A stretch of DNA of 36,209 nucleotides from a virus (lineage: Duplodnaviria > Heunggongvirae > Uroviricota > Caudoviricetes): IMG/VR virus record IMGVR_UViG_3300026224_000019, positions 1-36,209 of that record; one strand, given 5' to 3'. A program made the translations under genes and the position numbers. Positions 1 to 32,096 of the stretch are shown in pieces. The notes under the pieces are model-generated. The model was not told where the DNA came from and made no database searches. It saw nothing but the letters and a program-made list of their open reading frames with translations. The first letter of the stretch is position 1, and each line of letters begins with the position of its first letter.

Positions 1-1119
1 TCAAATAACCAACTTAACCCATTCCTGACCTCGAGTATCGTTATAGCGATCGGTGGTTGCCTGGATTTTATGTCCTAGTAATGTTTTTGTATCGATACCC
101 TGTGCACGGTACAGCCGTTCTGATAGAGAGCGTTGTTCATGAAATGTTGGCGGTGTTTTTCCGGCTGGTGGAATTATTCCAGCCAGATCCCGCGCTTTGG
201 CAAAGTAATCGCTCAGGTTGTCTTTACTCATTGGTTTTGGTTGTTTCTGGTGCCGACTATGAATCAGGTATGGACTCAATATTTTGTCCCTGCATCCATT
301 AATCACTTCTTTTAGCGATATCCCGATGGCATCACAGCGTAGCGTAAGCGGTAACGCAAGACGCATTCCAGTTTTTCCCTGGGTAATATGCAGGTGATCG
401 TTCCACACATCTGAAAAACGCATGTGGCAAATATCATCACGGCGCTGGCCAGTAACAATCGCAAGAAGCATTGCGTTACGGATAAAGTGTTTTTCAGGCG
501 TTGCGTTGTAAATTTTTTGCCAGTCTTCCAGAGTGAGCCTGGCTCTGGTTACTTTAGGGATCGGTTTACGGGTAGCCTCCGGAGGATTCCATCCGGGAGG
601 GACTTCCCCTGCATGCTGTGCTTCTTTATAAATATCAACCCATAATCCGCGATTTACTCTCGCTGTGCTGACCATGTCTTTATCCAGCCACTCGTCCAGT
701 ATTAATGCAAAGTCTCTTACTTCCAGTTCTTTCAATGGGTGGTTTCCCAGACGGGAAACCAGGAATGCAGCCATTCGCGCTTTTTCTTTGTGGGTTGTAG
801 CTGCAATATCTCCATTTTTCAGCCGCGCGTCCTGTATTTTCAGATATCGATCAACCCATGCCTTTAATCTGATACCCCGACGTTTTGTTGCTGACGGGCT
901 TTCATCAATTTTGCGCATGAAATATTCGGCTTCTGCTGCAGCTATTCGCTGATTGGCTGTGGAAGCGATTCTTTCAGCTTTGCCTTTGTCTGTTCCGAGT
1001 CCGTGAAATTTTCCAGTCACAGGGTTTTTATACTGGTAGTAAACTCTGCCAGTTCTGCGATCAAACTTTTCGTAAAGACCGGCTACGTCAGTGCTGTTTT
1101 TTCGTGGCCTCGGTGACAT
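1..1119 (-). CDS. int: Tyrosine recombinase, lambda-family phage integrase (372 aa)
   Basis: Full ORF with stop at window position 1-3. C-terminal catalytic region resembles lambda Int (LAIVTGQRRDD, PPTFHEQRSLSERLY, LLGHK...TTDRY). Sits at the prophage edge next to an Xis-like gene. Confidence 0.9.
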   Translation of the reverse strand: MSPRPRKNSTDVAGLYEKFDRRTGRVYYQYKNPVTGKFHGLGTDKGKAERIASTANQRIAAAEAEYFMRKIDESPSATKRRGIRLKAWVDRYLKIQDARLKNGDIAATTHKEKARMAAFLVSRLGNHPLKELEVRDFALILDEWLDKDMVSTARVNRGLWVDIYKEAQHAGEVPPGWNPPEATRKPIPKVTRARLTLEDWQKIYNATPEKHFIRNAMLLAIVTGQRRDDICHMRFSDVWNDHLHITQGKTGMRLALPLTLRCDAIGISLKEVINGCRDKILSPYLIHSRHQKQPKPMSKDNLSDYFAKARDLAGIIPPAGKTPPTFHEQRSLSERLYRAQGIDTKTLLGHKIQATTDRYNDTRGQEWVKLVI

Positions 1120-1418: not shown

Positions 1419-3899
1419 TTAAAAATCAGTCTGATTCGGGATCAGTTTTTGTATCGTGGCTGTAACGTATTTCGCCTGGTGACGGGCATCATCCAGCGCA
1501 TGGTGGCGCACGCCTTCAAATGGAATAACTGTTCTGGCATCGAAGCCGATAGTTTTTCCCAGTTCAACGATTGTACGTACATCGCGATCGTTGTAGTAAC
1601 GCCACGGGCAGGGGATGTTCAGGCGTTCGTACGAGGTTCGTAAAATAGTGTTGTCGAAAGTTGCACCATTGCCCCATACCTGAACGAATTTTTCATCTGA
1701 GTATTCGTTGATGAACTCCCGAAACCGCGAAAGGGCATCCTTCAGTTTTACCTGGTCTGTTAAAATGGCAGCTCTGGCTTCACTGGACTGCTTCAGCCAC
1801 CATTCGATGGTGCCACCGTCAGGAACAGCCCCTGTATTCATTGCGTCAGTCAGACTGATAACGATATAAAATACTGGCCCGATTTCCCCTGTTTGTGGGT
1901 CGAAGAAAACCGCACCAATAACCACGATGGGCGCATTGGCGTTGGTTCCCATTGTTTCAAGGTCGATCATCAGGTGGTACCACACTCTGCTGGTGGATGT
2001 GATAATGTGATGACCGTTCACCGCAATTAAGGGATCTGCCGTCTCGCCAGTTTTATTATCGCTGGCGTGGTCCTGAGCGCTGCCAGCATTCTTCTTGTGT
2101 GAATGTTCAGCGCCTTCCATTTCCTCCGGATCATCTTCCTGAACTTCAACCTGATACTCTTCATCGAATGTTTCCTGGTATGTTGCGTCGCCCATCACCG
2201 CGCCACAATCAGGGCAGTTGCCGCCGCCGGTTTGACCGCAGGCGGTGCAGACTTTTTCCGGTTCCTGTTGCGCTACTGGCTCAGGTTGTTTCGTTTCTGG
2301 CTCGTTTTGTAACGCATTTGGGCCGTTTTGTTCCGCTTTCTGGTCGTTCTGTTCCGTTTCTTGCTGGTTCTGATTCACTGAATCGCGGGTTTCAATCCCC
2401 TTCACCCATTTCGGATCATTCGGGTCGCTAATCCCTGCAACAAATTCACCACGTGATACAGCAAGCAACTTATCGGCGTCAGGCTGGCTGATATTGGCTG
2501 CCTGCATAATTTTGTTTACTTCGTCAGCGGTAACTTTTACCGGCTCTGGTTGTACGGTCGTGTCAGATGCACCAGTATTTTGTTGTGAACCTGAGTACGT
2601 GCCGTTTTTACGTGCGAAGTATTCCTCTTTTGTGATTTCCGTAGCTCCCAAAGCCAGCGCTTTTTCCAGACCAGAAAGTTTGTTTGCACGACCATATTTT
2701 TCGCCATCCTTATCGGTGAAAAGGAAGTAGAACGGCCCCTCACGCTCTACAGATGGTTCAGTTTCCAGCGTGCTTTCATTTTTTTGGGTATCAGATACTT
2801 CAGTTTCCACTGCATCAGTTTGTGCTGCTGACGGCTGGAGAATATCAGCAGTGCTCTGGTCTGTTTCTTCATCCTCAAACACGCCCTTTGTCGCCAGGTA
2901 TTCAGTGATGTATTTGTTCAGTGCCACGGGATCCTTGTGAATGTCGAGCGGACGCTCACGGACAAGACCAAAAATAGTCTGACGGTTGTAGCGAATGGCA
3001 TCAGGCTGTTTGCGCATTGATGCGGAAATGCGCTTCCAGTCTTCGCGGTCTTTGGCGATAACTTCATTTTCTGCCCAGCGAAGGATGTTACCGTCAATGC
3101 TTCCGGGGTCCGTATCACCAGGCCAGAGATAGCAGGCCAGCTCCCTGTCCAGCGCTTTCCATGTCTGCTTATATTCGCGACGAATGGCAGCAGTGGCAGG
3201 GTTGATTTTTTCTGCTGAGTTTTCAGTGTGCTGTCGGTTGACTCTGACGCGGGCAAGGTCAACAACAGACGTGTATTTTCCAGTCTCTTTGCGCTCTGCG
3301 TCCTGCCGTTTTTTCCAGTTACGTAATTCAGCCTGAATTTCGGGCCATTTGGCACTCGGCTTGCATTTGTGCTTAACCCATCCGATAGCGAACAGTTTGC
3401 GTTCCGGATACATAGCGTTAATTTCAGGCGTTTTCATCAATGCCTCAACGATATGCCCGTCGAATGTTGCCATGTCCTCCTGCAACAATTCCTGTGCACT
3501 AATCACCATATCAACGGTGATGTTTTCACATGTACCGAACTTAACCAGGACCGCGTTCTGTACTTCAAGGGACAGCTTGTCAAAATTGACGTTCATCGGA
3601 TCGGATTCTGGTTCGACCGGAATAAAGGAAGCGGATTCCTCATCCCAGCGGTTTTCCAGCATATATTCGGTATCCCAGGAGTCGATGGCAGGGCGGGGCA
3701 TGCCGGGTTTATCCTCGCAGACAAGAAATTTATAAGCGCAGTCCTGAGCAGCCGGATATTGCTCCAGGAATTGCCAGGTAAATTTGGCACGGGCGCGACG
3801 TTCGTCGCCGGCTTCAATGGCAGTGGCTACAGCGACTGCACCTTCTTCCTTTATTGCCTGTTCGTCCGGAATGGCGGCGCAAATAAAGACTTTACTCAT
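1419..3899 (-). CDS. Large prophage exonuclease (826 aa): C-terminal DnaQ-like 3'-5' exonuclease domain, N-terminal ~550 aa of unknown function with a Cys4 zinc-ribbon motif
   Basis: C-terminal MIDLETMGTNANAPIVVIGAVFFD ... HHALDDARHQAKY matches the DEDDh exonuclease motif pattern. CTACGQ...CPDCG zinc ribbon mid-protein. Occupies the recombination-gene position next to int/xis. Confidence 0.7.
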   Translation of the reverse strand: MSKVFICAAIPDEQAIKEEGAVAVATAIEAGDERRARAKFTWQFLEQYPAAQDCAYKFLVCEDKPGMPRPAIDSWDTEYMLENRWDEESASFIPVEPESDPMNVNFDKLSLEVQNAVLVKFGTCENITVDMVISAQELLQEDMATFDGHIVEALMKTPEINAMYPERKLFAIGWVKHKCKPSAKWPEIQAELRNWKKRQDAERKETGKYTSVVDLARVRVNRQHTENSAEKINPATAAIRREYKQTWKALDRELACYLWPGDTDPGSIDGNILRWAENEVIAKDREDWKRISASMRKQPDAIRYNRQTIFGLVRERPLDIHKDPVALNKYITEYLATKGVFEDEETDQSTADILQPSAAQTDAVETEVSDTQKNESTLETEPSVEREGPFYFLFTDKDGEKYGRANKLSGLEKALALGATEITKEEYFARKNGTYSGSQQNTGASDTTVQPEPVKVTADEVNKIMQAANISQPDADKLLAVSRGEFVAGISDPNDPKWVKGIETRDSVNQNQQETEQNDQKAEQNGPNALQNEPETKQPEPVAQQEPEKVCTACGQTGGGNCPDCGAVMGDATYQETFDEEYQVEVQEDDPEEMEGAEHSHKKNAGSAQDHASDNKTGETADPLIAVNGHHIITSTSRVWYHLMIDLETMGTNANAPIVVIGAVFFDPQTGEIGPVFYIVISLTDAMNTGAVPDGGTIEWWLKQSSEARAAILTDQVKLKDALSRFREFINEYSDEKFVQVWGNGATFDNTILRTSYERLNIPCPWRYYNDRDVRTIVELGKTIGFDARTVIPFEGVRHHALDDARHQAKYVTATIQKLIPNQTDF

Positions 3900-3990
3900 T
3901 TTGTTTTAACCTCATTACAGATTTAAGGGTGAACAAATCCCTGCCATTGCTGGCATATATAAAAAGAATCTGATTTTTGAATTACCGCAC

Positions 3991-4185
3991 TCAGGATTTT
4001 GATGCAGGTGTTTCAGTAAAATTCTGGTGTATGATTTTTTCTACCGGATAACAGTTACCGGGAATTTTCTGTTCTTTCATTGCGGCAATACATTCCTCCT
4101 TGCTGTCATAAATACCCGTTACCATATCAACCGGTTCGCTGTTAGCCATAAAAACAAGCATGACCGAGGCCCACATTACACCCAT
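3991..4185 (-). CDS. Small membrane protein (64 aa), possibly YdfD-like
   Basis: Hydrophobic N-terminus (MGVMWASVMLVFMA). Lies immediately downstream of the DicB-like gene, the position of ydfD in Qin. The homology call is from memory only. Confidence 0.45.
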   Translation of the reverse strand: MGVMWASVMLVFMANSEPVDMVTGIYDSKEECIAAMKEQKIPGNCYPVEKIIHQNFTETPASKS

Positions 4186-4373
4186 GATTTTTTCTCCTGG
4201 AAAATGCCAAGTTTAAGAAGGGCGAGTCGGGAAAGCATGGAATTATCATTGAGAAGATAAGGTTCATATTTCCTCATATTAATGGCATCCTCAGTGAAGT
4301 CTTTATTGCTGAGCTGAATGCCAATATCAAAACAACCTTCAGATGTATTAACGTTTGGTAATAACGTTTCCAT
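4176..4373 (-). CDS. dicB: DicB-like cell-division inhibitor (65 aa)
   Basis: N-terminus METLLPNVNTSEGCFDIGIQLSN...FTEDAIN matches my recollection of E. coli DicB (MKTLLPNVNTSEGCFEIG...FTEDAINKRK). GAGGA RBS 8 nt upstream. Lies downstream of the DicF-like RNA as in Qin. Confidence 0.75.
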   Translation of the reverse strand: METLLPNVNTSEGCFDIGIQLSNKDFTEDAINMRKYEPYLLNDNSMLSRLALLKLGIFQEKKSWV

Positions 4374-4390
4374 TATCGCGTCCTCAACAA

Positions 4391-4530
4391 TGAATTTTGT
4401 GATGCGGTGCCTGGTGCCTCCAGGTGACGTTAACCAGTTAACAATTAACGCCGGAGTATTTCACCCATAAGGTTGCTTGTTTTAACTGTTCCGCGTGCGC
4501 TGAGCCGCATTCACCGCATCACAAAATTCA
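4391..4530. repeat. Perfect 19-bp inverted repeat (TGAATTTTGTGATGCGGTG / CACCGCATCACAAAATTCA) flanking 102 bp; candidate RNA duplex / processing site
   Basis: Arms at 4391-4409 and 4512-4530 are exact reverse complements. Inner region holds nested palindromes (CCTGGTGCCTCCAGG, GTTAACCAGTTAAC). Confidence 0.8.
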
Positions 4531-4590
4531 CTTTAAAAAGGGCGGACATCAGCCAGCAATGAAACTGATGCCGCCAAAAGGTAATCAACA
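4531..4590 (-). ncRNA. dicF: DicF-like small RNA with intrinsic terminator
   Basis: Minus-strand sequence ...UUUUGGCGGCAUCAGUUUCAUUGCUGGCUGAUGUCCGCCCUUUUU resembles E. coli DicF as I remember it (UUUGGCGGUAUCAGUUUU...GCCGCCCUUUUU). GC stem (4540-4552 / 4565-4575) followed by a U-run. Located upstream of the dicB-like gene. The 5' end is approximate. Confidence 0.6.
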
Positions 4591-4915
4591 TGGGTTGTTG
4601 CAGCGGGGTTGTCACTCAGGCGTATGGTCAACCTGACAACCCGGTGTTATCTCGAGGAAAAGATAGCCTCGCCATACTTACCGCCGCGCCATTTCGCGGA
4701 TTGCCACAACCGGAAGCGCACGGTCGAAGATGCCGGTGGCACGCAACAGAGGGAGAAATAACTTCGCCGTGCGCTTTCGCGTTATGCCCTGACTTTTCAG
4801 GGATATATCCTTTCAGTAAACTGTCAGTGCCGGATTCTTATCCGTGTCCGGCGCACGACAACACGCTGTCACGTGTGGTCTCCATTCTCAACCAGTAACC
4901 TCAATGGAGGATAAA

Positions 4916-5158
4916 ATGCCAACAAAACTATGCCCAGCCTGTAATTCTTCGTCTGATTTCTCAGAGAAGAATGGTTATTATATTTTTGATTGCCCGAAAC
5001 ACGGTGTATTCCATATATCAAAACTTGATGGGATATTTGTGAAACCAAGTCAGTATCAGGCTGACAAGTTAAATAAAATTCTCAATGCCAAAAGAGCGCC
5101 AGGCTATACGGGACCTATAGAGGTTTTACCGCGTCCTCGTCTTGTGGAACTGGATTAA
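4916..5158 (+). CDS. Hypothetical zinc-ribbon protein (80 aa)
   Basis: ATG at 4916 preceded by GGAGG with 6-nt spacing. CPAC...CPKH motif. The only plus-strand gene in the leftward early region. Its 3' end overlaps the convergent 186-aa gene by 44 nt. Confidence 0.55.
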   Translation: MPTKLCPACNSSSDFSEKNGYYIFDCPKHGVFHISKLDGIFVKPSQYQADKLNKILNAKRAPGYTGPIEVLPRPRLVELD

Positions 5159-5675
5159 ACCAGTGCTCCTGAATCGCTCGTATTTTTACCCTCGGATGAT
5201 TGCCGGGGGTGATTATTAATTCTGGCGGACATGGTTCTCCATTATGACAAATTGCGCTATAAGTGAAATCAGCCAGAGCAGTGCCGGTCATTATTATTCC
5301 GAACTTATCAAGCAGCGAGAGCAAATCACGCAAACAGGAGTTATCAGTTTTTTCGTTATAAAATGAATCCCCTGATGCAGAGAGCATTTCACCTCGCTCT
5401 GCGATGCGTTTGACCATTTTCCAGAATTCTTTTTTTGAATACTTTTCCTCGACATAAAAACCCATCGCCGAGGCAATCCGCTTTGCAGCTTCTTCAGTAT
5501 CCTGGTTGTTTGTTACCGAAACAGAGTACAATCCGATAAACGCATCGCGCACATTACGAGCCATATTATCAGTGTCTTTTTTCGTTACCGATTCCAATGC
5601 AAGTTCGTTCAGGTGTTGACGGAGTGTCTGTGCTGCAATCTCCTGGATTGATAGTGGTAAATCTTTAAATTCCAT
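5115..5675 (-). CDS. Hypothetical protein (186 aa), leftward early operon
   Basis: Complete ORF; ATG 11 nt downstream of the YdfB-like stop. No motif recognised. Confidence 0.6.
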   Translation of the reverse strand: MEFKDLPLSIQEIAAQTLRQHLNELALESVTKKDTDNMARNVRDAFIGLYSVSVTNNQDTEEAAKRIASAMGFYVEEKYSKKEFWKMVKRIAERGEMLSASGDSFYNEKTDNSCLRDLLSLLDKFGIIMTGTALADFTYSAICHNGEPCPPELIITPGNHPRVKIRAIQEHWFNPVPQDEDAVKPL

Positions 5676-5686
5676 CTTTAACCCCG

Positions 5687-5815
5687 TTAGCCGTTAGATT
5701 TTGCCGAACTGGAAAGCGCCTGTTTAAACTCACTGAAGCTGAGAGCTTCTTCGCCTTCGGCAAGGCCTTCGAAGTATTCTTCGTAAGCCTTTTCCATGAT
5801 TGTGTCGAAATCCAT
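5687..5815 (-). CDS. Small acidic protein (42 aa), YdfB-like
   Basis: MDFDTIMEKAYEEYFEGLAEGEEALSFSEFKQALSSSAKSNG. Start overlaps the upstream stop (TGAtATG). Same size and position as Qin ydfB. Confidence 0.5.
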   Translation of the reverse strand: MDFDTIMEKAYEEYFEGLAEGEEALSFSEFKQALSSSAKSNG

Positions 5816-5816
5816 A

Positions 5817-5972
5817 TCACTCACCTGAGTTTCTTTCCAGCCAGCGACGGGCACCATTTTCGGTTTTAAACGTTTTGCTTTTGGTATACGTCATCGCGGT
5901 GAACGTACCGTCCTGGTTGGGGAACACGCCACATACCAGAGATTCGCTGTTGCCAAGATCGATAGTATCCAT
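5817..5972 (-). CDS. Small protein (51 aa), YdfA-like (DUF1391-type)
   Basis: Internal ATG (MDTIDLGNSESL...) with GAGGT RBS; matches the size and position of Qin ydfA. The track ORF extends to 6065, but that start has no RBS and sits inside a promoter-like element. Confidence 0.5.
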   Translation of the reverse strand: MDTIDLGNSESLVCGVFPNQDGTFTAMTYTKSKTFKTENGARRWLERNSGE

Positions 5973-6049
5973 GCTGACCTCATTTCCCCTTAACGCCGGG
6001 GTAGCGGAACTGTTTGCTGAGAACACCGTGCGGTGTCTTGATGGATGGT

Positions 6050-6101
6050 AATTTAGTTTTCTCATGAAAATTGGTCAAGTGTTTTTGATGAGAAAACTCA
6101 A
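6050..6101 (-). promoter_or_regulatory. Candidate leftward early promoter and operators (pL/OL-like)
   Basis: Minus strand: TTGACC (6078-6073), 17-nt spacer, TAAATT (6055-6050). Flanked by inverted copies of TGAGAAAACT (6055-6064 reverse, 6089-6098 forward), a motif also present in the OR region. Confidence 0.5.
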
Positions 6102-6165
6102 TATTTAATGCAAAATAAAGCCAATACATTGAAATGTAAGGCTTTAAAATTAGTGAAGGGGGGGG

Positions 6166-6573
6166 TTATTGATGTTTGTTACGTTTGCGAGCTTCTAGTA
6201 GCTCGGTGAATAGGCGATTAAAATTCTCAACGCGGGCACGGAGTTCGCTGATTTGTGCTTGCTGCTCTGATTTTGGAAGTGCGCGATACAATCGCAACAT
6301 CTCCAACTCATCTTCCGATAAGTCTAAGGCGCTGTTGAGTGCAACTGGTGGATCTGGTGTTTTATCCTCGTCACCAAACAGTATCCAAGTTGGTGAACAT
6401 TGCAATACCTCAGCCAGGCGATGCAAATTTTGCCCGCGCGGGGCTGTATGGTCGCTTTCCCATAGTGAAATTGATGAGCCAGATACGCCAGCAGCTTTGC
6501 TTAAATCGTTTTGACTTAAACCAACCTGTTTGCGTCTTTCTCTAATTCGTTGGCCTAAAGTTTTCTCGTTCAT
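6166..6573 (-). CDS. dicA: Prophage repressor, HTH XRE-family, DicA-like (135 aa from Met18 of the track ORF)
   Basis: GLSQNDLSKAAGVSGSSISLWE helix-turn-helix; VLQCSPTWILFGDEDK and MLRLYRALPKSEQ...RARVENFNRLFTELLEARKR match my recollection of E. coli DicA. Divergent from the Cro-like gene. Confidence 0.8.
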   Translation of the reverse strand: MNEKTLGQRIRERRKQVGLSQNDLSKAAGVSGSSISLWESDHTAPRGQNLHRLAEVLQCSPTWILFGDEDKTPDPPVALNSALDLSEDELEMLRLYRALPKSEQQAQISELRARVENFNRLFTELLEARKRNKHQ

Positions 6574-6594: not shown

Positions 6595-6637
6595 TTGACT
6601 TGAGATTCCTTGAGTGATTACCATTGAGAAAACTCAA
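6595..6637 (+). promoter_or_regulatory. Candidate rightward early promoter/operator (pR/OR-like)
   Basis: TTGACT at 6595-6600; TACCAT at 6619-6624; palindromic operator TTGAGAAAACTCAA at 6624-6637; GGAGGGG RBS before the Cro-like ATG at 6651. Confidence 0.45.
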
Positions 6638-6650: not shown

Positions 6651-6878
6651 ATGTTTAAATCAGACGTAATTAATTTTTATGGGACGAAAGCCAAAGTAGC
6701 GAAAGCTGCTGGTGTTGATCCATCTGCTGTTTCTCAATGGGGAGAACTGGTTCCTGAAGGTCGCGCGATGCGCCTGCAAGAGGCATCTGGCGGGGAACTT
6801 CAGTACGATCCCAAAGTTTATGACGAATATCGTAAGGCAAAGCGTGCGGGGCGGTTGAACAATGAAAATCACCCCTGA
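6651..6878 (+). CDS. Cro-like HTH protein (DicC/YdaS family, 75 aa)
   Basis: Divergent from the repressor across an operator-containing intergenic region. ATG 6651 has a strong RBS. C-terminal motif VPEGRAMRLQEASGGELQYDPKVYDEY. Confidence 0.65.
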   Translation: MFKSDVINFYGTKAKVAKAAGVDPSAVSQWGELVPEGRAMRLQEASGGELQYDPKVYDEYRKAKRAGRLNNENHP

Positions 6879-7413
6879 ACAGGTTTGTGAGGCTCTGGAT
6901 GCCTGGGTATGCCGACCAGGAATGACACAGGAGCAGGCGACGATATTAATCACAGAAGCCTTCTGGGCCCTGAAAGAACGCCCGAACATCGATGTTCAAC
7001 GCGTCACGTTTGATGATGGCGCGGTTGATCAACGGGCGCTGGGCGTTAACCGGGTGAAGATATTCGAACGCTGGAAAGCTATCGACACCAGGGATAAGCG
7101 TGAAAAATTCACGGCGCTGATTCCGGCAATTATGGAGGCTATCCGGATCAGCGATTTCAGGTTGTATTGTGAAATTACTGACGGAAAAAGCATTACGTAC
7201 ATGATCGCCGGGTTAAACAAAGAATATGGCGATGTGGTGGAGTCCGGGCTGCTTTTTGCGGATCCAGCTGTTGTGGAACGTGAGACTGACGAGCTTATAG
7301 AAAAAGCTATTGCTTTCAAGCACGCGTATCGTCAGCAATACCAATATTACTTTGCAGATAAACAAATATCTGTCTGGGGTTCGTATGAGTATCGATGCAC
7401 TACGATGGGCTAA
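6862..7413 (+). CDS. YdaT-like protein at the cII position (183 aa)
   Basis: Position immediately after the Cro-like gene with overlapping start; family call from memory, no motif verified. Confidence 0.45.
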   Translation: MKITPEQVCEALDAWVCRPGMTQEQATILITEAFWALKERPNIDVQRVTFDDGAVDQRALGVNRVKIFERWKAIDTRDKREKFTALIPAIMEAIRISDFRLYCEITDGKSITYMIAGLNKEYGDVVESGLLFADPAVVERETDELIEKAIAFKHAYRQQYQYYFADKQISVWGSYEYRCTTMG

Positions 7414-10817: not shown

Positions 10818-11183
10818 ATGGCACTGACGAAAAAACAACGTGCAGAACTGCGCATGAAGTTCGGCGGTCGCTGCGCTTATTGCGGCTGCGAACTTGGCGA
10901 AAAGTGGCATGCAGACCATGTAAAACCGGTCATTCGTTTTGATGGAAATATGCTTCACCAGGAACGTGACGATATATCCAACATGGTTCCGGCATGCCAC
11001 CCATGCAATCTGCACAAGCATTGCAGTAGCCTGGAAGATTATCGGCGAATTATCAGTGATGGTCGTCGTGAATTCCTTGCGTCCGGGAAAGGCAAAGCGC
11101 TGGTTCGTATGGGATTGGTTGAAATGAAACCTGACCCGGTTGTGTTCTGGTTTGAAAAATATCAAGAAGGGGCTACAGCATGA
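10818..11183 (+). CDS. HNH endonuclease (121 aa)
   Basis: CAYCGC...HADHVKP...N...ACHPCNLHK is the HNH/His-Me finger pattern with paired Cys motifs. Confidence 0.7.
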
Positions 11184-11524: not shown

Positions 11525-11814
11525 CTGGCCTGAAGCATTCACAACGGTAGGAATTGCGATGGCAGTGGCGCTGGTGGTGTATTCGATTTGCCGCTGGGGA
11601 TAAAAACGGTTTGCGGGAAAAAGGGAGTTAAGTAAAATTGCTGCGGGTGCTTGAGGCTATCTGTCTCAGGCATGAACACCAAAAGGCAGATAGAGAAAAG
11701 CCCCAGTTAACATTACGCGTCCTGCAAGACGCTTAACATTAATCTGAGGCCCAATCTATGTCTCACAAATGTAGGTTAGCCTCTTACGTGCCGAAAGGCA
11801 AGGAGAAGCAGGCT

Positions 11815-11970
11815 ATGAAGCAGCAAAAGGCGATGTTAATCGCCCTGATCGTCATCTGTTTAACCGTCATAGTGACGGCACTGGTAACGAGGAAAGACCT
11901 CTGCGAGGTACGAATCCGAACCGGCCAGACGGAGGTTGCTGTCTTCGTAGACTACGAATCTGAGAAGTAA
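11815..11970 (+). CDS. hokD: Hok/Gef-family type I toxin (51 aa), HokD-like
   Basis: MKQQKAMLIALIVICLTVIVTALVTRKDLCEVRIRTGQTEVAVF is the Hok signature (single TM, conserved Cys, RxxxxEV). AAGGAGAAG RBS. In-frame upstream extension from 11758 could be the mok-like leader frame. Confidence 0.8.
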   Translation: MKQQKAMLIALIVICLTVIVTALVTRKDLCEVRIRTGQTEVAVFVDYESEK

Positions 11971-14936: not shown

Positions 14937-15362
14937 ATGTTTGGTATTTTCAAAAAGAAAACCCGCAAGGCCATTACTGAAGTGAAGAAGATGGAGAACC
15001 GCGACGCAGTGGAGGCGACCGTCTGGGGCGCGTATTCCATTGCATATGCTGACGGCACCTGTGACGCGAAAGAAATCGCGGTACTGGAGAAAACCATTGC
15101 GGCACTTCCTGCCTTTGCGCCGTTCTCCGGTGAGATTGCACAAATGAGTGCAAATATCCGCGCCCGTTATGAAGCGTCGCCGCGCTCTGCCAATGCTGAA
15201 GCCCTTCGCCAGCTGGCTGATGTTGCCGGTACTGATGATGCAGTTAATGTACTGTGCCTGTGTCTGGATATCGCAGACCAGGATGGCATTGGTCCGGATG
15301 AAGAAGCGCAGCTCAAGAAAATTGCTCAGGCGCTGCAGTTACCGCTGGAGCAGTACCTGTGA
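14937..15362 (+). CDS. TerB-like domain protein (141 aa)
   Basis: Two repeats of the TerB pattern (IAYADGTCDAKEIAVLEK; CLDIADQDGIGPDEEAQLKKIAQAL) and a TerB-like N-terminus. Confidence 0.6.
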   Translation: MFGIFKKKTRKAITEVKKMENRDAVEATVWGAYSIAYADGTCDAKEIAVLEKTIAALPAFAPFSGEIAQMSANIRARYEASPRSANAEALRQLADVAGTDDAVNVLCLCLDIADQDGIGPDEEAQLKKIAQALQLPLEQYL

Positions 15363-18243: not shown

Positions 18244-18744
18244 GTGGATAAGGAATTGAAACACCTTGTTCTTAATGTCAGCCAGTTAGCTGCGCTGTCG
18301 GGTGTGCACCGACAGACTGTCGCATCAAGAATCAAAAATGTCCGAACAGCGGGTGGGCATGAGAGTAACCTCAAGCTGTATAAACTTACTGATATTCTGG
18401 CAGAGCTAATGAAGTTGCCACCGCCTGTCGCTGAAGGGGAAATGGATCCCCATGACCGAAAAGCCTGGTATCAGTCAGAACGGGAACGTCTGAAATTTGA
18501 ACAGGAGGTCGGAGAACTGATCCCTGCGTCTGATGTCGCCCGTGAATTTGCTGAAATGGCAAAGGCTATGGTGCAGGTTCTGGAAACTCTCCCCGATATT
18601 CTTGAACGCGATTGCGCTCTCGAGCCTTCGGCTGTCATGCGGGTGCAAAGCATTATTGATGATTTGCGTGACGAAATTGCGCGGCGGGTGGCAGATGACA
18701 GCAAACAGGAAGATACAGAGGAGGAAAATCAGGAGGACGAATAA
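18244..18744 (+). CDS. Terminase small subunit, Nu1-like (166 aa)
   Basis: N-terminal HTH (LNVSQLAALSGVHRQTVASRI) like lambda Nu1; acidic C-terminus; immediately precedes the terminase large subunit. Confidence 0.6.
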   Translation: MDKELKHLVLNVSQLAALSGVHRQTVASRIKNVRTAGGHESNLKLYKLTDILAELMKLPPPVAEGEMDPHDRKAWYQSERERLKFEQEVGELIPASDVAREFAEMAKAMVQVLETLPDILERDCALEPSAVMRVQSIIDDLRDEIARRVADDSKQEDTEEENQEDE

Positions 18745-20861
18745 TGCCTGTGCAGGCGACCGCCAGATCGTTGAAACTGGATACGGGCCAGTTAATTAAA
18801 GCGCCGCGCAGGATGCCTGTTGCCGAAGCGGTACAAAAATTTATGCGAGTCCCTACATCTGGTGGCAACTCTGTTCCGTGGGATCCGCTGGTTGCACCGT
18901 ATGTGATTGAACCCATGAACTGCCTGTCGTCCCGTGAGTTTGATGCGGTTGTTTTTGTTGGCCCTGCCCGTACGGGCAAGACTAACGGCCTGATTGATGG
19001 CTGGGTGGTTTATAACATTGTTTGCGATCCGTCAGACTTTTTGCTGGTGCAGATGACGCAGGATAAGGCGCAGGAGCACTCCAAAAAGCGCCTGGCAAGA
19101 ACATTTCGTTGCAGTCCGGAGGTCAGAAAACGCCTCAGTCCACGCCGCAACGATAACAACGTTCATGACAAATATTTTCTGTCAGGCAGCTTTCTGAAAA
19201 TCGGCTGGCCCTCCATCAATGTCATGTCATCCTCTGATTTTAAATGTGTGGCGCTGACTGATTACGACCGATTTCCTGAAGATATCGATGGCGAAGGTGA
19301 TGGTTTCTCCCTGGCTTCAAAACGTACCACCACATTTATGTCAGCTGGTATGACGCTGGTGGAGAGTTCTCCCGGGCGTGAAATCACAAACAGCAAATGG
19401 CGCAGAACGTCACCGCATGAAGCCCCGCCCACCACGGGGATCCTTTCTCTGTATAACCGTGGCGATCGTCGTCGCTGGTACTGGCCTTGTCCGGATTGCG
19501 GTGATTATTTCCAGCCATCGATGGAGGCTATGACGGGGTATCGTGACAATCCTGATCCTGTAAAAGCCAGTGAAGCGGCTCATATATTATGCCCTCATTG
19601 TGGCAACCGAATCACCGCAGACATGAAACGTGAACTGAATGGTCGCGGCGTCTGGTTGCGTGAAGGTGAGCAGATTGACAGAGAAGGGAATGTTACCGGA
19701 ACGCCACGTCATTCAAGGATAGCCAGCTTCTGGATGGAAGGCCCCGCTGCAGCCTATCAGACCTGGGCGCAACTGGTTTACAAACTACTGACTGCTGAGC
19801 AGGAATATGAAGCCACAGGCAGTGAGGAAACACTGAAGGCGGTGATTAACACCGACTGGGGATTGCCTTATTTGCCTCGTTCCGCCATGGAGTTGCGCAG
19901 TGCAGATGTTCTGATGCAGCGGGCTGAGGATTACGGTAAGCGCCTGGTACCGCCGAAAGTGCGTTTTCTTATTGCGGCTGTGGACGTGCAGGGCGGGAAG
20001 AACCGACGGTTTGTGGTGCAGATTATTGGCTATGGCGAGGACGGCGAACGCTGGCTGGTGGACCGTTATAACATCCGACAGTCATTGCGTTGCGATGAAA
20101 ATGGCGAAGCATTACCTGTGCATCCCGGAGCTTACCCTGAAGACTGGCAGTTGCTGGTCACCGATGTACTGGAGAAAACGTATCCGCTCCAGTCCGATCC
20201 GGCCCGCAGAATGCCTGTACTGGCAATGGCGGTGGACAGTGGTGGTGAGGACGGGGTGACGGATAACGCCTATAAATTCTGGCGAAAATGTCGTCAGGAT
20301 GGACTGGGGCGACGGGTTTTTCTGGTAAAGGGAGACAGCACGAAACGCCAGAAAATTATTACCATCACACACCCGGATAATACCGGGCGAAGCGATCGCC
20401 GTGCGGATGCTCAGGGGAAGGTGCCGGTATATCTCCTGCAGACAGATCTGCTGAAAGATCAACTAAGCAATAACCTGCAACGTGAAATGCCCGGACCGGG
20501 CTACATTCATTTTCCTGACTGGCTAGGGGAGTGGTTTTATGAAGAGTTGACCTATGAGGAACGTGGTGCTGACGGGAAATGGCGCAAGCCGGGAAAAGGG
20601 AATAACGAAGCGTTTGACCTTTTTTGCTATGCCCATGCCGTCGCCATTCTGCGTGGCTATGAAAAAATCCGTGACTGGAGCAACCCTCCCCAGTGGGCAA
20701 GAGGGCAGGATGCTGACGCGGGGACTTCGGCAGACAGACGTTCTTCCGACACAGTGGACAAGAAAAACGTTGTCGGAAGAGATGAGCGGCAAAAAGCAGC
20801 GTCGCCGGAAGCGTTATCCGGAAACTGGTTATCACTACCCCGAAACGGAGGATGGTTGTGA
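18744..20861 (+). CDS. Terminase large subunit, lambda GpA family (705 aa)
   Basis: Walker A VFVGPARTGKT; CPDCGDY...CPHCG zinc ribbon; size and order as lambda A. Confidence 0.9.
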   Translation: MPVQATARSLKLDTGQLIKAPRRMPVAEAVQKFMRVPTSGGNSVPWDPLVAPYVIEPMNCLSSREFDAVVFVGPARTGKTNGLIDGWVVYNIVCDPSDFLLVQMTQDKAQEHSKKRLARTFRCSPEVRKRLSPRRNDNNVHDKYFLSGSFLKIGWPSINVMSSSDFKCVALTDYDRFPEDIDGEGDGFSLASKRTTTFMSAGMTLVESSPGREITNSKWRRTSPHEAPPTTGILSLYNRGDRRRWYWPCPDCGDYFQPSMEAMTGYRDNPDPVKASEAAHILCPHCGNRITADMKRELNGRGVWLREGEQIDREGNVTGTPRHSRIASFWMEGPAAAYQTWAQLVYKLLTAEQEYEATGSEETLKAVINTDWGLPYLPRSAMELRSADVLMQRAEDYGKRLVPPKVRFLIAAVDVQGGKNRRFVVQIIGYGEDGERWLVDRYNIRQSLRCDENGEALPVHPGAYPEDWQLLVTDVLEKTYPLQSDPARRMPVLAMAVDSGGEDGVTDNAYKFWRKCRQDGLGRRVFLVKGDSTKRQKIITITHPDNTGRSDRRADAQGKVPVYLLQTDLLKDQLSNNLQREMPGPGYIHFPDWLGEWFYEELTYEERGADGKWRKPGKGNNEAFDLFCYAHAVAILRGYEKIRDWSNPPQWARGQDADAGTSADRRSSDTVDKKNVVGRDERQKAASPEALSGNWLSLPRNGGWL

Positions 20862-21076
20862 AAAAAGATGAGATTTTCCAGATGCTGGTTATCGTGCGAC
20901 AGGCATACAGGGATTCCCTGGATGGTAAAAGTGTGTCTTTTACCGGGGTGAATGGCAGGGCGATCACCAACCATGATCCTGTTGCATTACGCAGGGAGCT
21001 TGAATACTGGGAAAAACGCTGGGCGGCGGCCTGCCAGCCCACAAGGAAACCGTACAAACTCGCCCGTTTCTCCTGA
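20858..21076 (+). CDS. Head-tail joining protein, gpW-like (72 aa)
   Basis: Small ORF between terminase and portal as in lambda W. GTG start has GGAGG at proper spacing; the track ATG at 20852 abuts the RBS. Confidence 0.5.
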   Translation: MKKDEIFQMLVIVRQAYRDSLDGKSVSFTGVNGRAITNHDPVALRRELEYWEKRWAAACQPTRKPYKLARFS

Positions 21077-21084
21077 GGTTTTTT

Positions 21085-22596
21085 ATGGGTTTTTTTGATA
21101 AAGCACTTGGCGCAATTGCGCCAGGGTGGGCAGTTTCGCGCGCCAGAAACAAAATACTGCTGAGAGCTTATGAGGCGGCGCAGCCTTCACGCCTGAATAA
21201 GGCGCGGCGCGAGAGCCGTTCTGCCGATACAGCGGTTTTTTCTGCCGGTACCTCGTTAAGGGAGCAGGCCAGGGCGCTGGATGAAGATCACGATATCGTG
21301 ATTGGTCTGCTGGATAAGCTGGAAGAGCGGGTTATTGGTGCGCAGGGGATCCAGGTCGAACCACAACCACTGAGAAGCGATGGCACCCTGCATGAATCGC
21401 TGGCAGAGCAGATCTCGGCATTGTGGTCTGAATGGTCTGTTCGCCCTGAGGTCACGGGGATGTTCACCCGCCCGGAGGCCGAACGGATGGCATTGCGATC
21501 TGCTTTGCGTGATGGCGAGATGTTCGTACAACTGGTGCGTGGTCCTGTCGCCGGTCTGAATCATTCCACTGTGGTGCCATTATCACTGGAACTTCTCGAA
21601 GCAGATTTTGTTCCGGTCAGTCTGAACACGAACGCGGGTCAGCAAGTCCGCCAGGGCATTATTCTTAACAACTGGGGGCGGCCTGTAGGGTATCGGGTTT
21701 ATAAATACCATCCTGCAAATATGCGTGGATTCAGCGCCGATCTCAAAACTGTTCACGCAGACAACATGCTTCATCTGGCGATGCGGAAACGGCTTCATCA
21801 GGTGAGAGGTGTCAGCCTGTTACATGGTGTGATTCGCCGGATTGCTGATCTGAAAGATTATGAAGAATCAGAGCGTGTGGCTGCCCGTATTGCTGCCGCG
21901 CTGGGTTTCTACATTAAGCGTGGTGATGCCGCCAGCTTTCCGACGGATAACGACTGGACACCCACAGAACAAAAACCCCGGTACTTTGATATTTCGCCGG
22001 GCATGATTTTTGACGAACTGGCCCCCGGTGAAGATCTGGGGATGGTGGAGTCGAATCGTCCGAATGTTCATCTTTATGAATTCCGGAACGGGCAGTTGCG
22101 TGCTGTGGCTGCCGGAACCCGTGGCAGTTATTCCAGTATTGCCCGTGACTATAACGGCTCCTACAGTTCGCAGCGTCAGGAGCTGGTGGAAGGTTACGAA
22201 GGCTACGGGGTTTTACAGCAGTGGTTTGTCGGTCAGTACAGCCGCCCGGTGTACCGGGCATGGCTGGAGCAGGCGATACCTTTTCTTGAAATTCCTCCTG
22301 ATGTGGATATGTCCACGCTTTTCAATGCCACTTATCTTGGCCCGGTGATGCCGTGGATTGATCCGGTGAAGGAGGCTGCAGCATGGCGGGCCATTCTTCG
22401 CGGTGGTGCCGGGACGGAGGCCGAGTGGATACGTGCCCGTGGGCAGTCACCGCAGGAGGTCAAACGTCAGCGACTGCGTGAAACTGAATTTAACCGGGAA
22501 AACGGGCTGGTGTTCGATTCTGACGCCGCTAACGATAAAGGAGTGATCCCTGATGCAGCAAATGATAAACCCGCGTCTTCGCGGGACGATGATTAA
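21085..22596 (+). CDS. Portal protein, lambda gpB family (503 aa)
   Basis: Size, position and N-terminus MGFFDKALGAIAPGW typical of lambda-family portal proteins. Confidence 0.85.
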   Translation: MGFFDKALGAIAPGWAVSRARNKILLRAYEAAQPSRLNKARRESRSADTAVFSAGTSLREQARALDEDHDIVIGLLDKLEERVIGAQGIQVEPQPLRSDGTLHESLAEQISALWSEWSVRPEVTGMFTRPEAERMALRSALRDGEMFVQLVRGPVAGLNHSTVVPLSLELLEADFVPVSLNTNAGQQVRQGIILNNWGRPVGYRVYKYHPANMRGFSADLKTVHADNMLHLAMRKRLHQVRGVSLLHGVIRRIADLKDYEESERVAARIAAALGFYIKRGDAASFPTDNDWTPTEQKPRYFDISPGMIFDELAPGEDLGMVESNRPNVHLYEFRNGQLRAVAAGTRGSYSSIARDYNGSYSSQRQELVEGYEGYGVLQQWFVGQYSRPVYRAWLEQAIPFLEIPPDVDMSTLFNATYLGPVMPWIDPVKEAAAWRAILRGGAGTEAEWIRARGQSPQEVKRQRLRETEFNRENGLVFDSDAANDKGVIPDAANDKPASSRDDD

Positions 22597-24643
22597 TCCC
22601 CGCGCCAGCCTTGCGGGGGTGGATGCCGCTAATGGTCAGTGCTGGTATGAAATCCGTGCACAGACTGCCGGGCGGGTGGAAATTTACCTCTATGACGTGA
22701 TTGGCGGATGGGGCATCACCGCGCAGCAGTTTATTGCTGACTGTAAGGATGCGGGGGTGTTTGAGGCCAGCGCTATTGATCTGCATATCCACAGCCCGGG
22801 CGGTGATGTGATGCAGGGGTTTGCCATCTTTAACACGCTGTCACGGCTGAAAGCGAAGGTGGATATCTGGGTGGATGGTGTTGCAGCCAGCATGGCCTCC
22901 ATGATTGTCTGCCTGCCAGGCGCCACAGTGCATATGCCTGAAAATTCCTGGCTGATGGTGCACAAGCCGTGGGGCGGGATCGCCGGTGATTCCGATGATA
23001 TGCGTGATTATGCTGACTGGCTGGATCGCAACGAGGCGCTGATGCTGTCAGCCTACATGAATAAAACCGGACTCGGGCAGGAGGAGCTGGAAGCCATGCT
23101 GAAAGCAGAAACCTGGCTGAACGGTGCTGAAGCCGTGGAAAAAGGCTTCGCTGATACGCTTGAACCTGAATTACAGGCTGCGGCCTGTGTGAACCAAAAT
23201 AAACTGAAGGATTACCATAATATGCCAGAACAGATTAACGCGCTTTTTGCTCCACGTGCAGAAACGACAAACGGACAGCCGCAGGAGCCGAAAGCAACCC
23301 CGCAAAATGCGCAACAGATCGCTGCTCAGCAGGCACCATCAACCGGAAATGTGGATATCAGCGCAATTGCTTCGCAGGTTCAGCAACAACTGATGGCAGC
23401 CAATGCGGAACGTGTGCAGGCTGTAACCGCAGTTTTTGCCTCTTTCCCGTCTTATGCCGCACTGAAAGCGGAGTGTCTGAACGACATGACCTGTACGGAA
23501 GCACAGGCCCGTGAAAAACTGTTGCAGGCGCTGGCAGCCGGAACGACACCAAGTGCAGGCCCGGGCGCTGTTCATATTCATGCCGGGAACGGTAATCTGG
23601 TCGGCGATTCCATTCGTGCGGCTGTGATGGCACGCGCCGGATATGCCGAAGCAGAAAAAGATAATGCTTATAACGGTTTTACACTGCGCGAGCTGGCGCG
23701 TGCTTCGCTGGTTGATCGCGGTATCGGTATCTCCGGTCATTCCGCACCGATGGCGATGGTGGGGCTGGCATTTACTCACAGCAGCAGCGATTTCGGCAAT
23801 ATCCTGATGGATGTGGCTCATAAAGCTGCGTTGCAGGGCTGGGATGATGCCAGCGAAAATTTTGACAAATGGACCCGCAAGGGAACGCTGACTGATTTTA
23901 AAACCGCGCATCGTGTCGGGCTGGAAACTTTCCCGACGCTACGAAAAGTATTGCCGGGGGCTGAATATAAATATGTGACCCTGAAAGATCGTGGCGAACC
24001 GATTGCACTGGCGACTTATGGCGAATTGTTCAGCATTGATCGCCAGACCATCATCAATGATGACCTGGATATGCTGACCCGTATTCCGATGGCAATGGGG
24101 GCGGCAGCGCGGACTACCGTGGGTGATCTGGTCTGGGCCGTGCTGACCAGCAATCCGAAAATGTCGGATGGCAAACCGCTGTTCCATGCAGATCATGGCA
24201 ACCTGGTGACTGCAGATTTGTCTATTGAGGGGCTGGATTCCGGGCGTAAAGCCATGCTGCTCCAGAAATCGGGTGACCGCCGCCTGAACATTCGTCCTGC
24301 TTTTATGTTGACGCCTGTTGCCATTGAGTCGCGTGCCAATCAGTTGATTAAGTCTGCCAGCGTGCCCGGTGCAGATGCGAACAGCGGCATTATTAACCCG
24401 ATTCAGAATTTTGCCACGGTTCTGTCAGAGGCCCGCCTTGATGACAGCAGCCCGACGGATTATTACCTGGTGGCAGCGCAGGGGCGTGACACGATTGAAG
24501 TGGCTTACCTCGACGGTATTGATACGCCGTATCTGGAGCAGCAACAGGGCTTTACGGTTGATGGTGCAGCATTCAAGGTGCGCATTGATGCCGGAGTGGC
24601 ACCGCTTGACTGGCGTGGCATGGTCAAAGTGAAAAAACAATAA
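22553..24643 (+). CDS. Prohead protease (ClpP/S14-like) fused to major capsid protein (696 aa)
   Basis: N-terminal ClpP-like region (IHSPGGDVMQGFAIFNTL, MVHKPWGG); C-terminal ~350 aa has capsid-like character; no separate major capsid gene follows. AAGGAG RBS before ATG 22553. Confidence 0.7.
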   Translation: MQQMINPRLRGTMINPRASLAGVDAANGQCWYEIRAQTAGRVEIYLYDVIGGWGITAQQFIADCKDAGVFEASAIDLHIHSPGGDVMQGFAIFNTLSRLKAKVDIWVDGVAASMASMIVCLPGATVHMPENSWLMVHKPWGGIAGDSDDMRDYADWLDRNEALMLSAYMNKTGLGQEELEAMLKAETWLNGAEAVEKGFADTLEPELQAAACVNQNKLKDYHNMPEQINALFAPRAETTNGQPQEPKATPQNAQQIAAQQAPSTGNVDISAIASQVQQQLMAANAERVQAVTAVFASFPSYAALKAECLNDMTCTEAQAREKLLQALAAGTTPSAGPGAVHIHAGNGNLVGDSIRAAVMARAGYAEAEKDNAYNGFTLRELARASLVDRGIGISGHSAPMAMVGLAFTHSSSDFGNILMDVAHKAALQGWDDASENFDKWTRKGTLTDFKTAHRVGLETFPTLRKVLPGAEYKYVTLKDRGEPIALATYGELFSIDRQTIINDDLDMLTRIPMAMGAAARTTVGDLVWAVLTSNPKMSDGKPLFHADHGNLVTADLSIEGLDSGRKAMLLQKSGDRRLNIRPAFMLTPVAIESRANQLIKSASVPGADANSGIINPIQNFATVLSEARLDDSSPTDYYLVAAQGRDTIEVAYLDGIDTPYLEQQQGFTVDGAAFKVRIDAGVAPLDWRGMVKVKKQ

Positions 24644-24645
24644 AT

Positions 24646-24671
24646 AACCGCCGGACAGGGCGGTTTTTTTT
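24646..24671 (+). terminator. Intrinsic terminator after the capsid gene
   Basis: AACCGCC-GGACAG-GGCGGTT followed by TTTTTTTT. Confidence 0.6.
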
Positions 24672-24716
24672 ATGGCTGAAGCGGCGCACTTTGCGCCGCA
24701 TTTACCGGAGAAAAAA

Positions 24717-25046
24717 ATGTCAAAAAATTTTGTTCAGGACGGAAAAAACGTCGACTGGGTGAACGGGACCGGGAAGGCGGTGTCATCTGGCGATCTGGTT
24801 GTTCAGGATAATCTTGTTGGTGTTGCTCACGCTGATATTCCGGACGGGGATGTGGGCATTCTGCATACGGTGGGGGTTTTCTCTTTACCTAAAGAGGCAG
24901 AGGCGCTAACGCAAGGCAAGCTGGTGTATTTCAAAGCGGATACGGCAACACTGACCGCAACGAAATCAGGTAATACGCTGGTGGGAACAGTATGGGCATC
25001 GGCTGAAGCCGGAGATGCCTGTGTTTGTGTGCGTCTGGGGTACTGA
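24717..25046 (+). CDS. Small head protein, putative decoration/cement protein (DUF2190-like, 109 aa)
   Basis: Position right after the capsid gene; Gly/Val-rich beta-type sequence; GGAG RBS. Confidence 0.45.
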   Translation: MSKNFVQDGKNVDWVNGTGKAVSSGDLVVQDNLVGVAHADIPDGDVGILHTVGVFSLPKEAEALTQGKLVYFKADTATLTATKSGNTLVGTVWASAEAGDACVCVRLGY

Positions 25047-25402: not shown

Positions 25403-25423
25403 ACTTCATAAGGAGATATCGCA

Positions 25424-26107: not shown

Positions 26108-26121
26108 AATGTGAGGACGCA

Positions 26122-27304: not shown

Positions 27305-27325
27305 CCTGCTGCGGCAGGTTTTTTT
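27305..27325 (+). terminator. Hairpin plus T-run between gpV and the sheath gene
   Basis: CCTGC-TGCG-GCAGG followed by TTTTTTT. Confidence 0.5.
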
Positions 27326-27342
27326 ATGTCCGGAGAATGCAA

Positions 27343-29306: not shown

Positions 29307-29324
29307 GCACTGATTAACGCATAA

Positions 29325-29346: not shown

Positions 29347-29358
29347 AAGGAGCAGATT

Positions 29359-32085: not shown

Positions 32086-32096
32086 GGGAGGAGATG

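Follow-up and report, generated by a model that had tools for sequence, protein, structure and literature searches.

Does a Qin-type cell-division control locus that sits in an apparently intact prophage still provide the two inhibitors of FtsZ, the protein DicB and the RNA DicF, that go with it in Escherichia coli K-12? The question is raised by a viral DNA of 36,209 nucleotides (nt), IMG/VR record IMGVR_UViG_3300026224_000019 (Caudoviricetes), in which an earlier note, made from the sequence alone, had recognised the dic locus at positions 3,991 to 6,573. We refer to the whole of this DNA as the window; all coordinates count along it, and the operon under study runs on its minus strand.

Our analysis indicates, with a probability of about 0.8 for the explanation as a whole, that the region comprises the immunity switch of a contractile-tailed, Qin/PPompW-like lambdoid prophage together with its leftward early operon, which is of the PL type. 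The Qin-type dicA/dicC–dicBF module is genuine and represents an already known kind of system. What is unusual about it is limited to a minor, non-canonical dicF allele, which probably no longer targets ftsZ, and to a two-gene cassette that replaces ydfC. The earlier note overlooked this cassette, as well as the putatively altered immunity specificity.

Identity of the locus and its dicB gene

Open reading frame (ORF) listing and reading of the sequence place dicA, ydfA, ydfB, an ORFan that we call orf186, a DicF-like RNA, dicB and ydfD on the minus strand, with dicC and ydaT diverging rightward. Between orf186 and dicB, about 740 nt are without a minus-strand ORF. All elements of the dic locus named in the earlier note were found on this strand, where it had placed them or a few bases off. 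The genes that define the locus are the following.

6166–6573, minus: dicA-type immunity repressor, 135 amino acids (aa); NCBIfam DicA PRK09706, 238.3 bits against a cut-off of 101
6651–6878, plus: dicC, the Cro analogue, divergent from dicA, 75 aa; NCBIfam PRK09744, 167.6 bits against a cut-off of 130; Pfam P22_Cro
5817–5972, minus: ydfA, first gene of the operon, 51 aa, DUF1391; Pfam PF07151, E = 3.5e-27
5687–5815, minus: ydfB, 42 aa
4176–4373, minus: dicB, 'type 2' allele, 65 aa; Pfam PF05358, E = 1.8e-32, 111.2 bits against 27; NCBIfam NF049927, 101.2 bits against 100
3991–4185, minus: ydfD-like gene, DUF1482, 64 aa; Pfam PF07358, E = 4.2e-19; phrog_1092

The DicB, DUF1391, DUF1482, DicA and DicC families were all assigned above the curated cut-offs of Pfam and NCBIfam. 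Moreover, the locus is syntenic with the annotated Qin locus of K-12 and with those of E. coli NY1601 (the closest locus-level relative of the window), O157 and phage Tritos. Pairwise alignment with K-12 Qin, which the earlier note had proposed as a check, bears out the assignment gene by gene, with identities of 100% for YdfB, 96% for YdfA, 71% for DicC, 66% for DicB, 54% for DicA and 46% for YdfD. At the nucleotide level, a block of ydfD, dicB, dicF and about 270 nt of leader is 75% identical to K-12 (blastn, window 3900–4857 against K-12 5079–4103). Homology is lost at a 3' remnant of ydfC (4859–4880), regained at ydfB/ydfA (97%) and lost again exactly at the promoter (6043). As in K-12, the ATG of ydfB sits 1 nt past the stop codon of ydfA.

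The dicB gene lies downstream of dicF and overlaps the start of the DUF1482 gene ydfD, the last gene of the dicBF block, by 10 nt at its own 3' end. The similarity of 4176–4373 to DicB, on which the first reading hinged, is well founded. The exact DicB protein of the window was found in 113 blocks of the collection. Its allele family also occurs linked to canonical dicF, and the dicF alleles and the two DicB allele families assort independently.

The spacer between dicF and dicB forms a feature of its own.

4396–4528, minus: dicF–dicB spacer, or dicB leader; STnc100-like match, Rfam RF02076, 40.4 bits, below the gathering score of 47

A sub-threshold STnc100 match lies at the same position in K-12, NY1601, O157 and phage Tritos, and in every dic locus examined the spacer matches this Rfam family at 33–40 bits against the gathering score of 47 (K-12, locus L001 of our set, 4433–4642). 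This points to STnc100 as the homologue of the dicB leader in Salmonella-type prophages. A separate STnc100 small RNA (sRNA) in the window was rejected as a candidate, since K-12's own dicB leader matches equally below threshold.

A DicA/DicC switch with diverged recognition halves

DicA and DicC are treated as analogues of CI and Cro, and dicBp as the equivalent of PL (PMC10448788). In Pfam searches, the DicA of the window consists of a helix-turn-helix (HTH) domain only (HTH_3) and has no S24 peptidase domain. Comparing the two regulators with those of K-12 reveals an uneven distribution of identity. Whereas the C-terminal part of DicA is 64% identical, its HTH half reaches 40%; for DicC, the corresponding values are 95% for the C-terminal part and 37.5% for the N-terminal part. 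The divergence of both proteins is therefore concentrated in their DNA-recognition halves. A promoter scan of the intervening and adjoining DNA yielded two candidate promoters.

6050–6101, minus: dicBp/PL-like promoter; −35 TTGACC, 17-nt spacer, −10 TAAATT; flanked by putative operators at 6052–6064 and 6089–6101
6595–6637, plus: dicCp/PR-like promoter; −35 TTGACT, −10 TACCAT; third putative operator copy at 6625–6637

The PL-like promoter has the same order as dicBp of K-12, namely an operator, CACTTGACC as the −35 element and a second operator across the spacer and the −10 element. The motif TGAGAAAACTCAA has three matches with 0–1 mismatch, all of them in the two promoter regions, and the 13-mer operator core has six matches with up to two mismatches in the window, compared with 0.85 expected. 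The operator type of K-12, TGTTAG-N6-CTAACA, is replaced here by TTGAGTTTTCTCAA, and a comparison for shared specificity with K-12 DicA came out negative. Because the operators are new and the divergence is focused in the DNA-recognition halves, we infer that the immunity specificity differs from that of Qin and that the window would carry the DicA/DicC switch in a hetero-immune form.

Eight consecutive G at 6158–6165 (C8 on the coding strand) follow directly after the dicA stop codon, before the PL-like promoter, and are absent from K-12. This tract could be slippage-prone.

Prophage context and completeness

The earlier note had seen in the dic locus the leftward early operon of a prophage, which our analysis identifies as lambdoid. 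In line with this, three genes of exonuclease, excisionase and integrase type lie downstream on the same strand.

1419–3899, minus: exonuclease, 826 aa, phrog_2082; distal part of the same leftward transcription unit
About 1124–1342, minus: excisionase-like ORF; same leftward unit
1–1119, minus: integrase, intact ORF of 372 aa, phrog_7244; stop codon at the edge of the window

Rightward, the window encodes O/P-type replication proteins, hok/sok, DUF968, RusA, Q, two holins and an M15 endolysin, followed by late genes for terminase, portal, a ClpP-capsid fusion, sheath, tube, tape measure and baseplate. Over the late region, identity to an E. coli prophage inserted at ompW is about 96%, and 30 genes of this relative match the window as single, full-length pieces, with 97–100% protein identity for the late genes (tblastn). 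Within the window, integration, replication, antitermination, lysis, head and tail genes are thus all present at full length. The endolysin had appeared truncated (127 aa against a PHROG profile of 292 positions); this was rejected, as the relative has an M15 peptidase of 125 aa at the same place.

The window extends from the integrase stop codon into a tail-fibre gene, whose frame is still open at the last base (374 of its 407 aa are matched). Past this end point, the ompW-type relative has fibre-assembly genes, another fibre gene, Rha/ash and attR, and no attachment (att) site was found within the window. For these reasons completeness cannot be shown, and the earlier description of the prophage as intact is supported only as far as the window reaches: all head, tail and lysis genes are full length, but the tail-fibre end and the att sites fall outside. 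The integrase is just 44% identical to that of the ompW-type relative (window 1–1119 against L003 616–1746) although the late genes agree at 97–100%, and the attachment site therefore probably differs between the two. A 372-aa integrase that stands next to potC/potD in locus L127 likewise suggests a different attachment site.

It is conceivable, though in our view doubtful, that the element is cryptic or immobile like Qin, and that its dic module is a host-domesticated stress and exclusion module that is never delivered by induction. A window without att sites, tail-fibre end, fibre-assembly gene and antirepressor would be in accordance with this, as would the frameshifted integrase of NY1601 and a DicA-type repressor that lacks an SOS-cleavable domain. 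Against it speak the early, lysis, head and tail genes, of which all 30 that were compared are full length in one piece, the intact integrase ORF, and the occurrence of close relatives of the module in phages isolated as particles.

A polymorphic two-gene cassette in the ydfC slot

Unlike in K-12, ydfC is absent between ydfB and dicF, and its place is filled by two convergent genes.

4859–4880, minus: ydfC 3' remnant, left boundary of the cassette; 22-nt exact match to K-12 (L001 3996–3975), inside ydfC
4916–5158, plus: orf80, zinc-ribbon-like (CxxC...CPxH); phrog_10133, E = 4e-31; weak Pfam Zn_ribbon_8 match
5115–5675, minus: orf186, an ORFan in the sense of the operon, with a constant N-terminus of about 50 aa (MEFKDLP..IQEIAA..NVRDAF.GLY) and a type-specific C-terminus
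5186–5212, plus: terminator-like hairpin just downstream of orf80, within orf186 on the opposite strand; 10-pair stem with 6 GC pairs, a consensus match only

The N-terminus of orf186 is common to phrog_1363, 2151, 9419 and 6937, and full-length homologues with 66–98% identity occur in E. coli and Salmonella. The protein belongs to no Pfam, NCBIfam or PADLOC family, and a profile search of the PDB returned noise only (S100-A4, E ≥ 0.015). An AlphaFold2 model built on an 11-sequence alignment was too poor for fold searches, with a mean predicted local distance difference test (pLDDT) score of 48 and a predicted template-modelling (pTM) score of 0.36. For orf80 there was no NCBIfam match, and PADLOC gave nothing credible for either protein; a Cas11a match with E = 0.003 was taken as chance.

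The small gene orf80 is antisense to the operon, and its 3' end overlaps that of orf186 by 44 nt. A GGAGG motif lies 5 nt upstream of its ATG at 4916. When compared with the O157 copy, the codons of orf80 differ by 16 synonymous and 19 non-synonymous changes, with an excess at third positions, whereas the other frames show 3–10 synonymous changes. On the strength of this coding signature, its membership in phrog_10133 and the fact that the homologue in O157 was called by PGAP, orf80 is a real gene.

The cassette is found in 410 of 5426 complete E. coli genomes. Across the fetched loci (L006, L127–L132, L075, L110 and L114; window 4881–5688), the slot proved polymorphic. The constant N-terminus of about 50 aa is joined to different C-termini, and each type goes, in strict linkage, with one small convergent gene of its own, in pairs of 186 + 80, 208/212 + 69, 135 + 77 and 106 + 48 aa, and the 3' end of the partner gene abuts or overlaps the sense gene.

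A non-canonical dicF allele

The earlier note had also located a DicF-like sRNA upstream of dicB. Two features make up this part of the operon.

4535–4590, minus: DicF-like RNA, allele B, with a short 5' arm, the hairpin GGCGGCAUCAG...CUGAUGUCCGCC and a U5 Rho-independent terminator
4591–4857, minus: conserved untranslated leader upstream of dicF, homologous to the ydfC–dicF intergenic region of K-12; the segment adjoining dicF is invariant in five loci

At the Rfam gathering threshold DicF was missed, and sok was the sole match in the whole window. At a permissive threshold, 4540–4590 of the minus strand aligned to positions 1–52 of model RF00039 (E = 2.4e-5). Its 34.1 bits fall short of the gathering score of 48, whereas the canonical DicF of K-12, NY1601, O157:H7 and Tritos scored 72.5–76.9 bits. 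As dicF does, the RNA occupies untranslated DNA that separates the ydfC slot from dicB, and both its leader and its trailer are conserved. The proposed similarity of 4531–4590 to DicF therefore stands in part: a homologue occupies the dicF position, yet it remains sub-threshold.

In a five-way alignment the flanks are invariant and all changes fall inside the RNA. The 5' arm of allele B has a 10-nt deletion relative to the canonical form. In the loop, ACUCCGUGA is replaced by CAUUGCUGG, and the anti-Shine-Dalgarno sequence ACUCCGU, which is complementary to ftsZ, is absent. The 3' stem carries CUGAUGUCCGCC in place of CUGCUCUGCCGCC. The resulting hairpin is tighter than that of K-12 (−21.0 versus −15.9 kcal/mol), and U5 is kept, as expected of a terminator. 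Mutagenesis has shown that the 3' region of DicF pairs with ftsZ at the ribosome-binding site (PMC5069750).

Predicted pairing was assessed by partition-function cofold against dinucleotide shuffles, with ftsZ −60..+30 and −60..+40 as targets. K-12 DicF bound the shorter target with −16.1 kcal/mol (3% of shuffles as good) and the longer one with −14.1 kcal/mol (22%). For allele B, the values were −3.7 and −7.6 kcal/mol, worse than 99.5% and 87% of shuffles. Allele B was also worse than shuffles on pykA, xylR and manX, the last being a validated target that was missed even with K-12 DicF. Within the limited power of cofold, no pairing of allele B with ftsZ, pykA or xylR was predicted, and the complementarity of loop and 3' region to the ftsZ ribosome-binding site was not recovered in silico. 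A plain RNAduplex comparison of DicF and ftsZ had been dropped in favour of cofold, as it did not separate even K-12 DicF from shuffles. Because the ftsZ-complementary loop and 3' region are lost, allele B probably no longer targets ftsZ. Inhibition of FtsZ through a delivered DicF, as envisaged in the earlier note, cannot be assumed for this divergent allele.

A flank-anchored scan of phage contigs (viral loci L008–L126) recovered 122 dicF copies, which represent 19 alleles in four classes.

Canonical, about 109 copies: canonical 5' arm and hairpin
Class B (that of the window), 4 identical copies: short 5' arm, hairpin B
Class C, 6 copies: the short 5' arm of B, another hairpin
Class D, 3 copies: canonical 5' arm, B-like stem

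The classes thus combine two 5' arms with four or more hairpins. Allele B is also present in loci L044, L089 and L092. Among the 5426 complete E. coli genomes, 3953 have canonical dicF and 81–89 have allele B. A literature search of limited coverage, which is not proof of absence, returned no earlier description of divergent dicF alleles.

Allele B, like C and D, may be a retargeted trans-acting sRNA, the dicF slot serving as a swappable seed cassette directed at other host or phage mRNAs; we regard this as possible rather than likely. It would agree with four discrete classes in which two 5' arms and at least four hairpins are variously combined between invariant flanks, with the fact that four loci share an identical allele B while their flanks are 84–90% identical to the window, and with the recurrence of this allele in complete genomes. 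Allele D, which keeps the canonical 5' arm together with predicted pairing to xylR and pykA, indicates that the arms behave as modules. On the other side, no target was identified, and the very stable hairpin leaves little single-stranded seed. The invariant block spans about 115 columns and includes the universally conserved flanks, so that the sRNA core is not singled out; selection on this core, as read from the identity of allele B, was rejected for the same reason.

An extension of this idea, which we put forward tentatively, is that Qin-like early-left operons have two swappable specificity slots. One would hold the dicF alleles, with B retargeted and not an ftsZ antisense RNA, and the other the polymorphic convergent pairs at the ydfC position, whose pattern would fit a toxin/immunity-like or exclusion module. 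If the alternative dicF alleles and their linked cassettes are functional, cassette exchange would be a means by which prophages diversify a regulatory RNA and the two-gene module beside it. Such exchange would bear on phage–host regulation and superinfection exclusion, and would be of moderate interest.

The canonical arrangement, in which DicB (via MinC) and DicF (as antisense at the ftsZ ribosome-binding site) both block FtsZ on induction, is improbable here: the RNA sits exactly in the dicF position with all 52 Rfam positions aligned, keeps the GGCGG/CCGCC stem base and the U-tract and has residual complementarity to ftsZ by eye (GGCG, ACA, GAAAC; the in-silico pairing test being weak), but its low bit score against 72–77 bits in the four other loci, the replaced anti-Shine-Dalgarno loop, the rewritten 3' stem that mutagenesis had implicated in ftsZ pairing, and a predicted ftsZ binding worse than 87–99% of shuffles speak against it. 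In annotation, synteny by itself is no sufficient ground for ascribing ftsZ repression to a 'DicF'. Allele B, which occurs in about 1.5% of complete E. coli genomes, is missed by the Rfam threshold and is without the ftsZ-pairing sequence.

Proposed mode of action

In the model that follows from an immunity switch coupled to a PL-type operon, DicA would be the maintenance repressor of the prophage, HTH-only and not RecA-cleavable, with DicC as its Cro analogue. DicA would bind the palindromic operator TTGAGTTTTCTCAA, two copies of which bracket the PL-like promoter, with one at the PR-like promoter. Once repression is lifted, leftward transcription would proceed through ydfA, ydfB, orf186, the leader, the DicF-like hairpin/terminator, dicB and ydfD toward exo, xis and int. 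By homology, DicB would be expected to bind MinC and bring it to ZipA at midcell, where FtsZ rings would be dismantled and filamentation would result, and also to block ManYZ-dependent phage DNA entry. This MinC/ZipA/ManYZ mechanism is known for the K-12 protein only (PMC6832061; mechanism also PMC10448788). Allele B keeps the terminator hairpin and has lost the ftsZ-pairing sequences; it would most likely act as a cis attenuator before dicB, with either no trans target or a different one. In this model, the gene identities, the synteny, the operator repeats and the structure and frequency of the alleles were shown directly, whereas the binding of DNA, the binding of MinC and the lost targeting by the RNA were deduced.

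In K-12, DicA is relieved by the antirepressor Rem, and short HTH-only repressors of the DicA class are said to be inactivated by antirepressors and not by cleavage (PMC10448788). Several observations weigh against our explanation at this point and at others. A tblastn search with K-12 Rem, which covered the window and not the part of the element beyond it, found no homologue (best E = 0.058), and neither an N-like antiterminator nor an antirepressor was found within the window. Consequently, the model does not account for the inactivation of DicA or for the passage of transcription beyond a terminator of −21 kcal/mol to dicB, exo, xis and int. DicB is only 66% identical to the characterised K-12 protein and barely exceeds the NCBIfam cut-off (101.2 against 100). 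The pairing test is weak, as the K-12 DicF–ftsZ signal weakens once the target is extended by 10 nt, with 22% instead of 3% of shuffles doing equally well; it ignores Hfq and loop–loop contacts, and its targets are K-12 sequences that may not be those of the host. Lastly, allele B is 100% conserved although the four loci that carry it have diverged, which would suit a trans-acting RNA with a function better than a mere terminator.

Neighbouring genes

One further gene adjoins the switch.

6862–7413, plus: YdaT-family protein in the cII position; Pfam YdaT_toxin, E = 1e-5

Elsewhere in the window, a hok/sok type I toxin–antitoxin system lies at 11645–11970 (Rfam sok, 120 bits; a 70-aa ORF that ends Hok-like) in a nin-like region, as does hokD in Qin. 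Between Q and the holins, in the slot occupied by stx in Stx phages, an ORF of 141 aa (14937–15362) belongs to phrog_632, labelled as a 'tellurite resistance' moron. An HNH endonuclease of 121 aa (10818–11183) gave weak PADLOC matches to PtuB (Septu) and PDC-M01B, which probably reflect just the shared HNH domain. The genome is mosaic: its lambdoid early and Q-lysis regions are joined to a P2/Mu-like contractile tail (sheath, tube and gpV/W/J/I baseplate) and a fusion of ClpP protease and major capsid protein (18244–35071).

Prevalence and comparison with known systems

The 3-kb locus matches 4759 of the 5426 complete E. coli genomes, at a median of two places per genome. Moreover, the ydfD–dicB–dicF block is carried by 78 deposited phage records, including Tritos (with DicF annotated), mEp460_ev081, the vB_Eco series and PPompW prophages. 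The functional phage mEp460_ev081 has been reported to carry dicB, dicF, dicAC and rem (Ragunathan et al. 2023, PMC10448788), and dicBF has been described in various prophage contexts, O157:H7 having several copies (Balasubramanian et al. 2016). The presence of dicBF in complete lambdoid phages is therefore already documented and the locus is common in E. coli, so that its presence in a functional phage lacks the novelty that the earlier note had seen in it. As most E. coli genomes carry dicBF modules, our main point is of limited weight.

The overall organisation is analogous to the PL operon of phage lambda, in which a leftward division inhibitor (kil, acting on FtsZ) stands under the immunity regulators CI and Cro and is followed by exo, xis and int (analogy drawn in PMC10448788). 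However, Kil and DicB are unrelated in sequence, the DicA of the window lacks a RecA-cleavable domain, no N gene was identified in the window, and an sRNA/terminator is embedded in its operon. With regard to the type of repressor, DicA belongs to the same class as the short repressors GfoR/GftR of Gifsy-type phages, which are under the control of antirepressors (PMC10448788); in the window, neither a Rem nor a GfoA-like antirepressor was detected.

When comparing the window with the cryptic prophage Qin of K-12, gene order and orientation are the same, the dicF and dicB leaders are homologous and operators stand on either side of the −35 element. Whereas Qin has ydfC, the window has orf186 and the convergent orf80; its dicF scores 34 against 77 bits, its operators differ, as do its DicA and DicC in their DNA-recognition halves, and no rem was found in it. 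Moreover, whereas Qin is a remnant, the module of the window is embedded in a gene-complete phage genome. In this respect it resembles mEp460_ev081, Tritos, vB_EcoS-640R1 and the PPompW prophages of enterohaemorrhagic E. coli, which carry the same exo–ydfD–dicB–dicF–...–ydfB–ydfA–repressor/Cro block in complete phage genomes. Tritos differs from the window in having a canonical DicF (72.5 bits) and ydfC.

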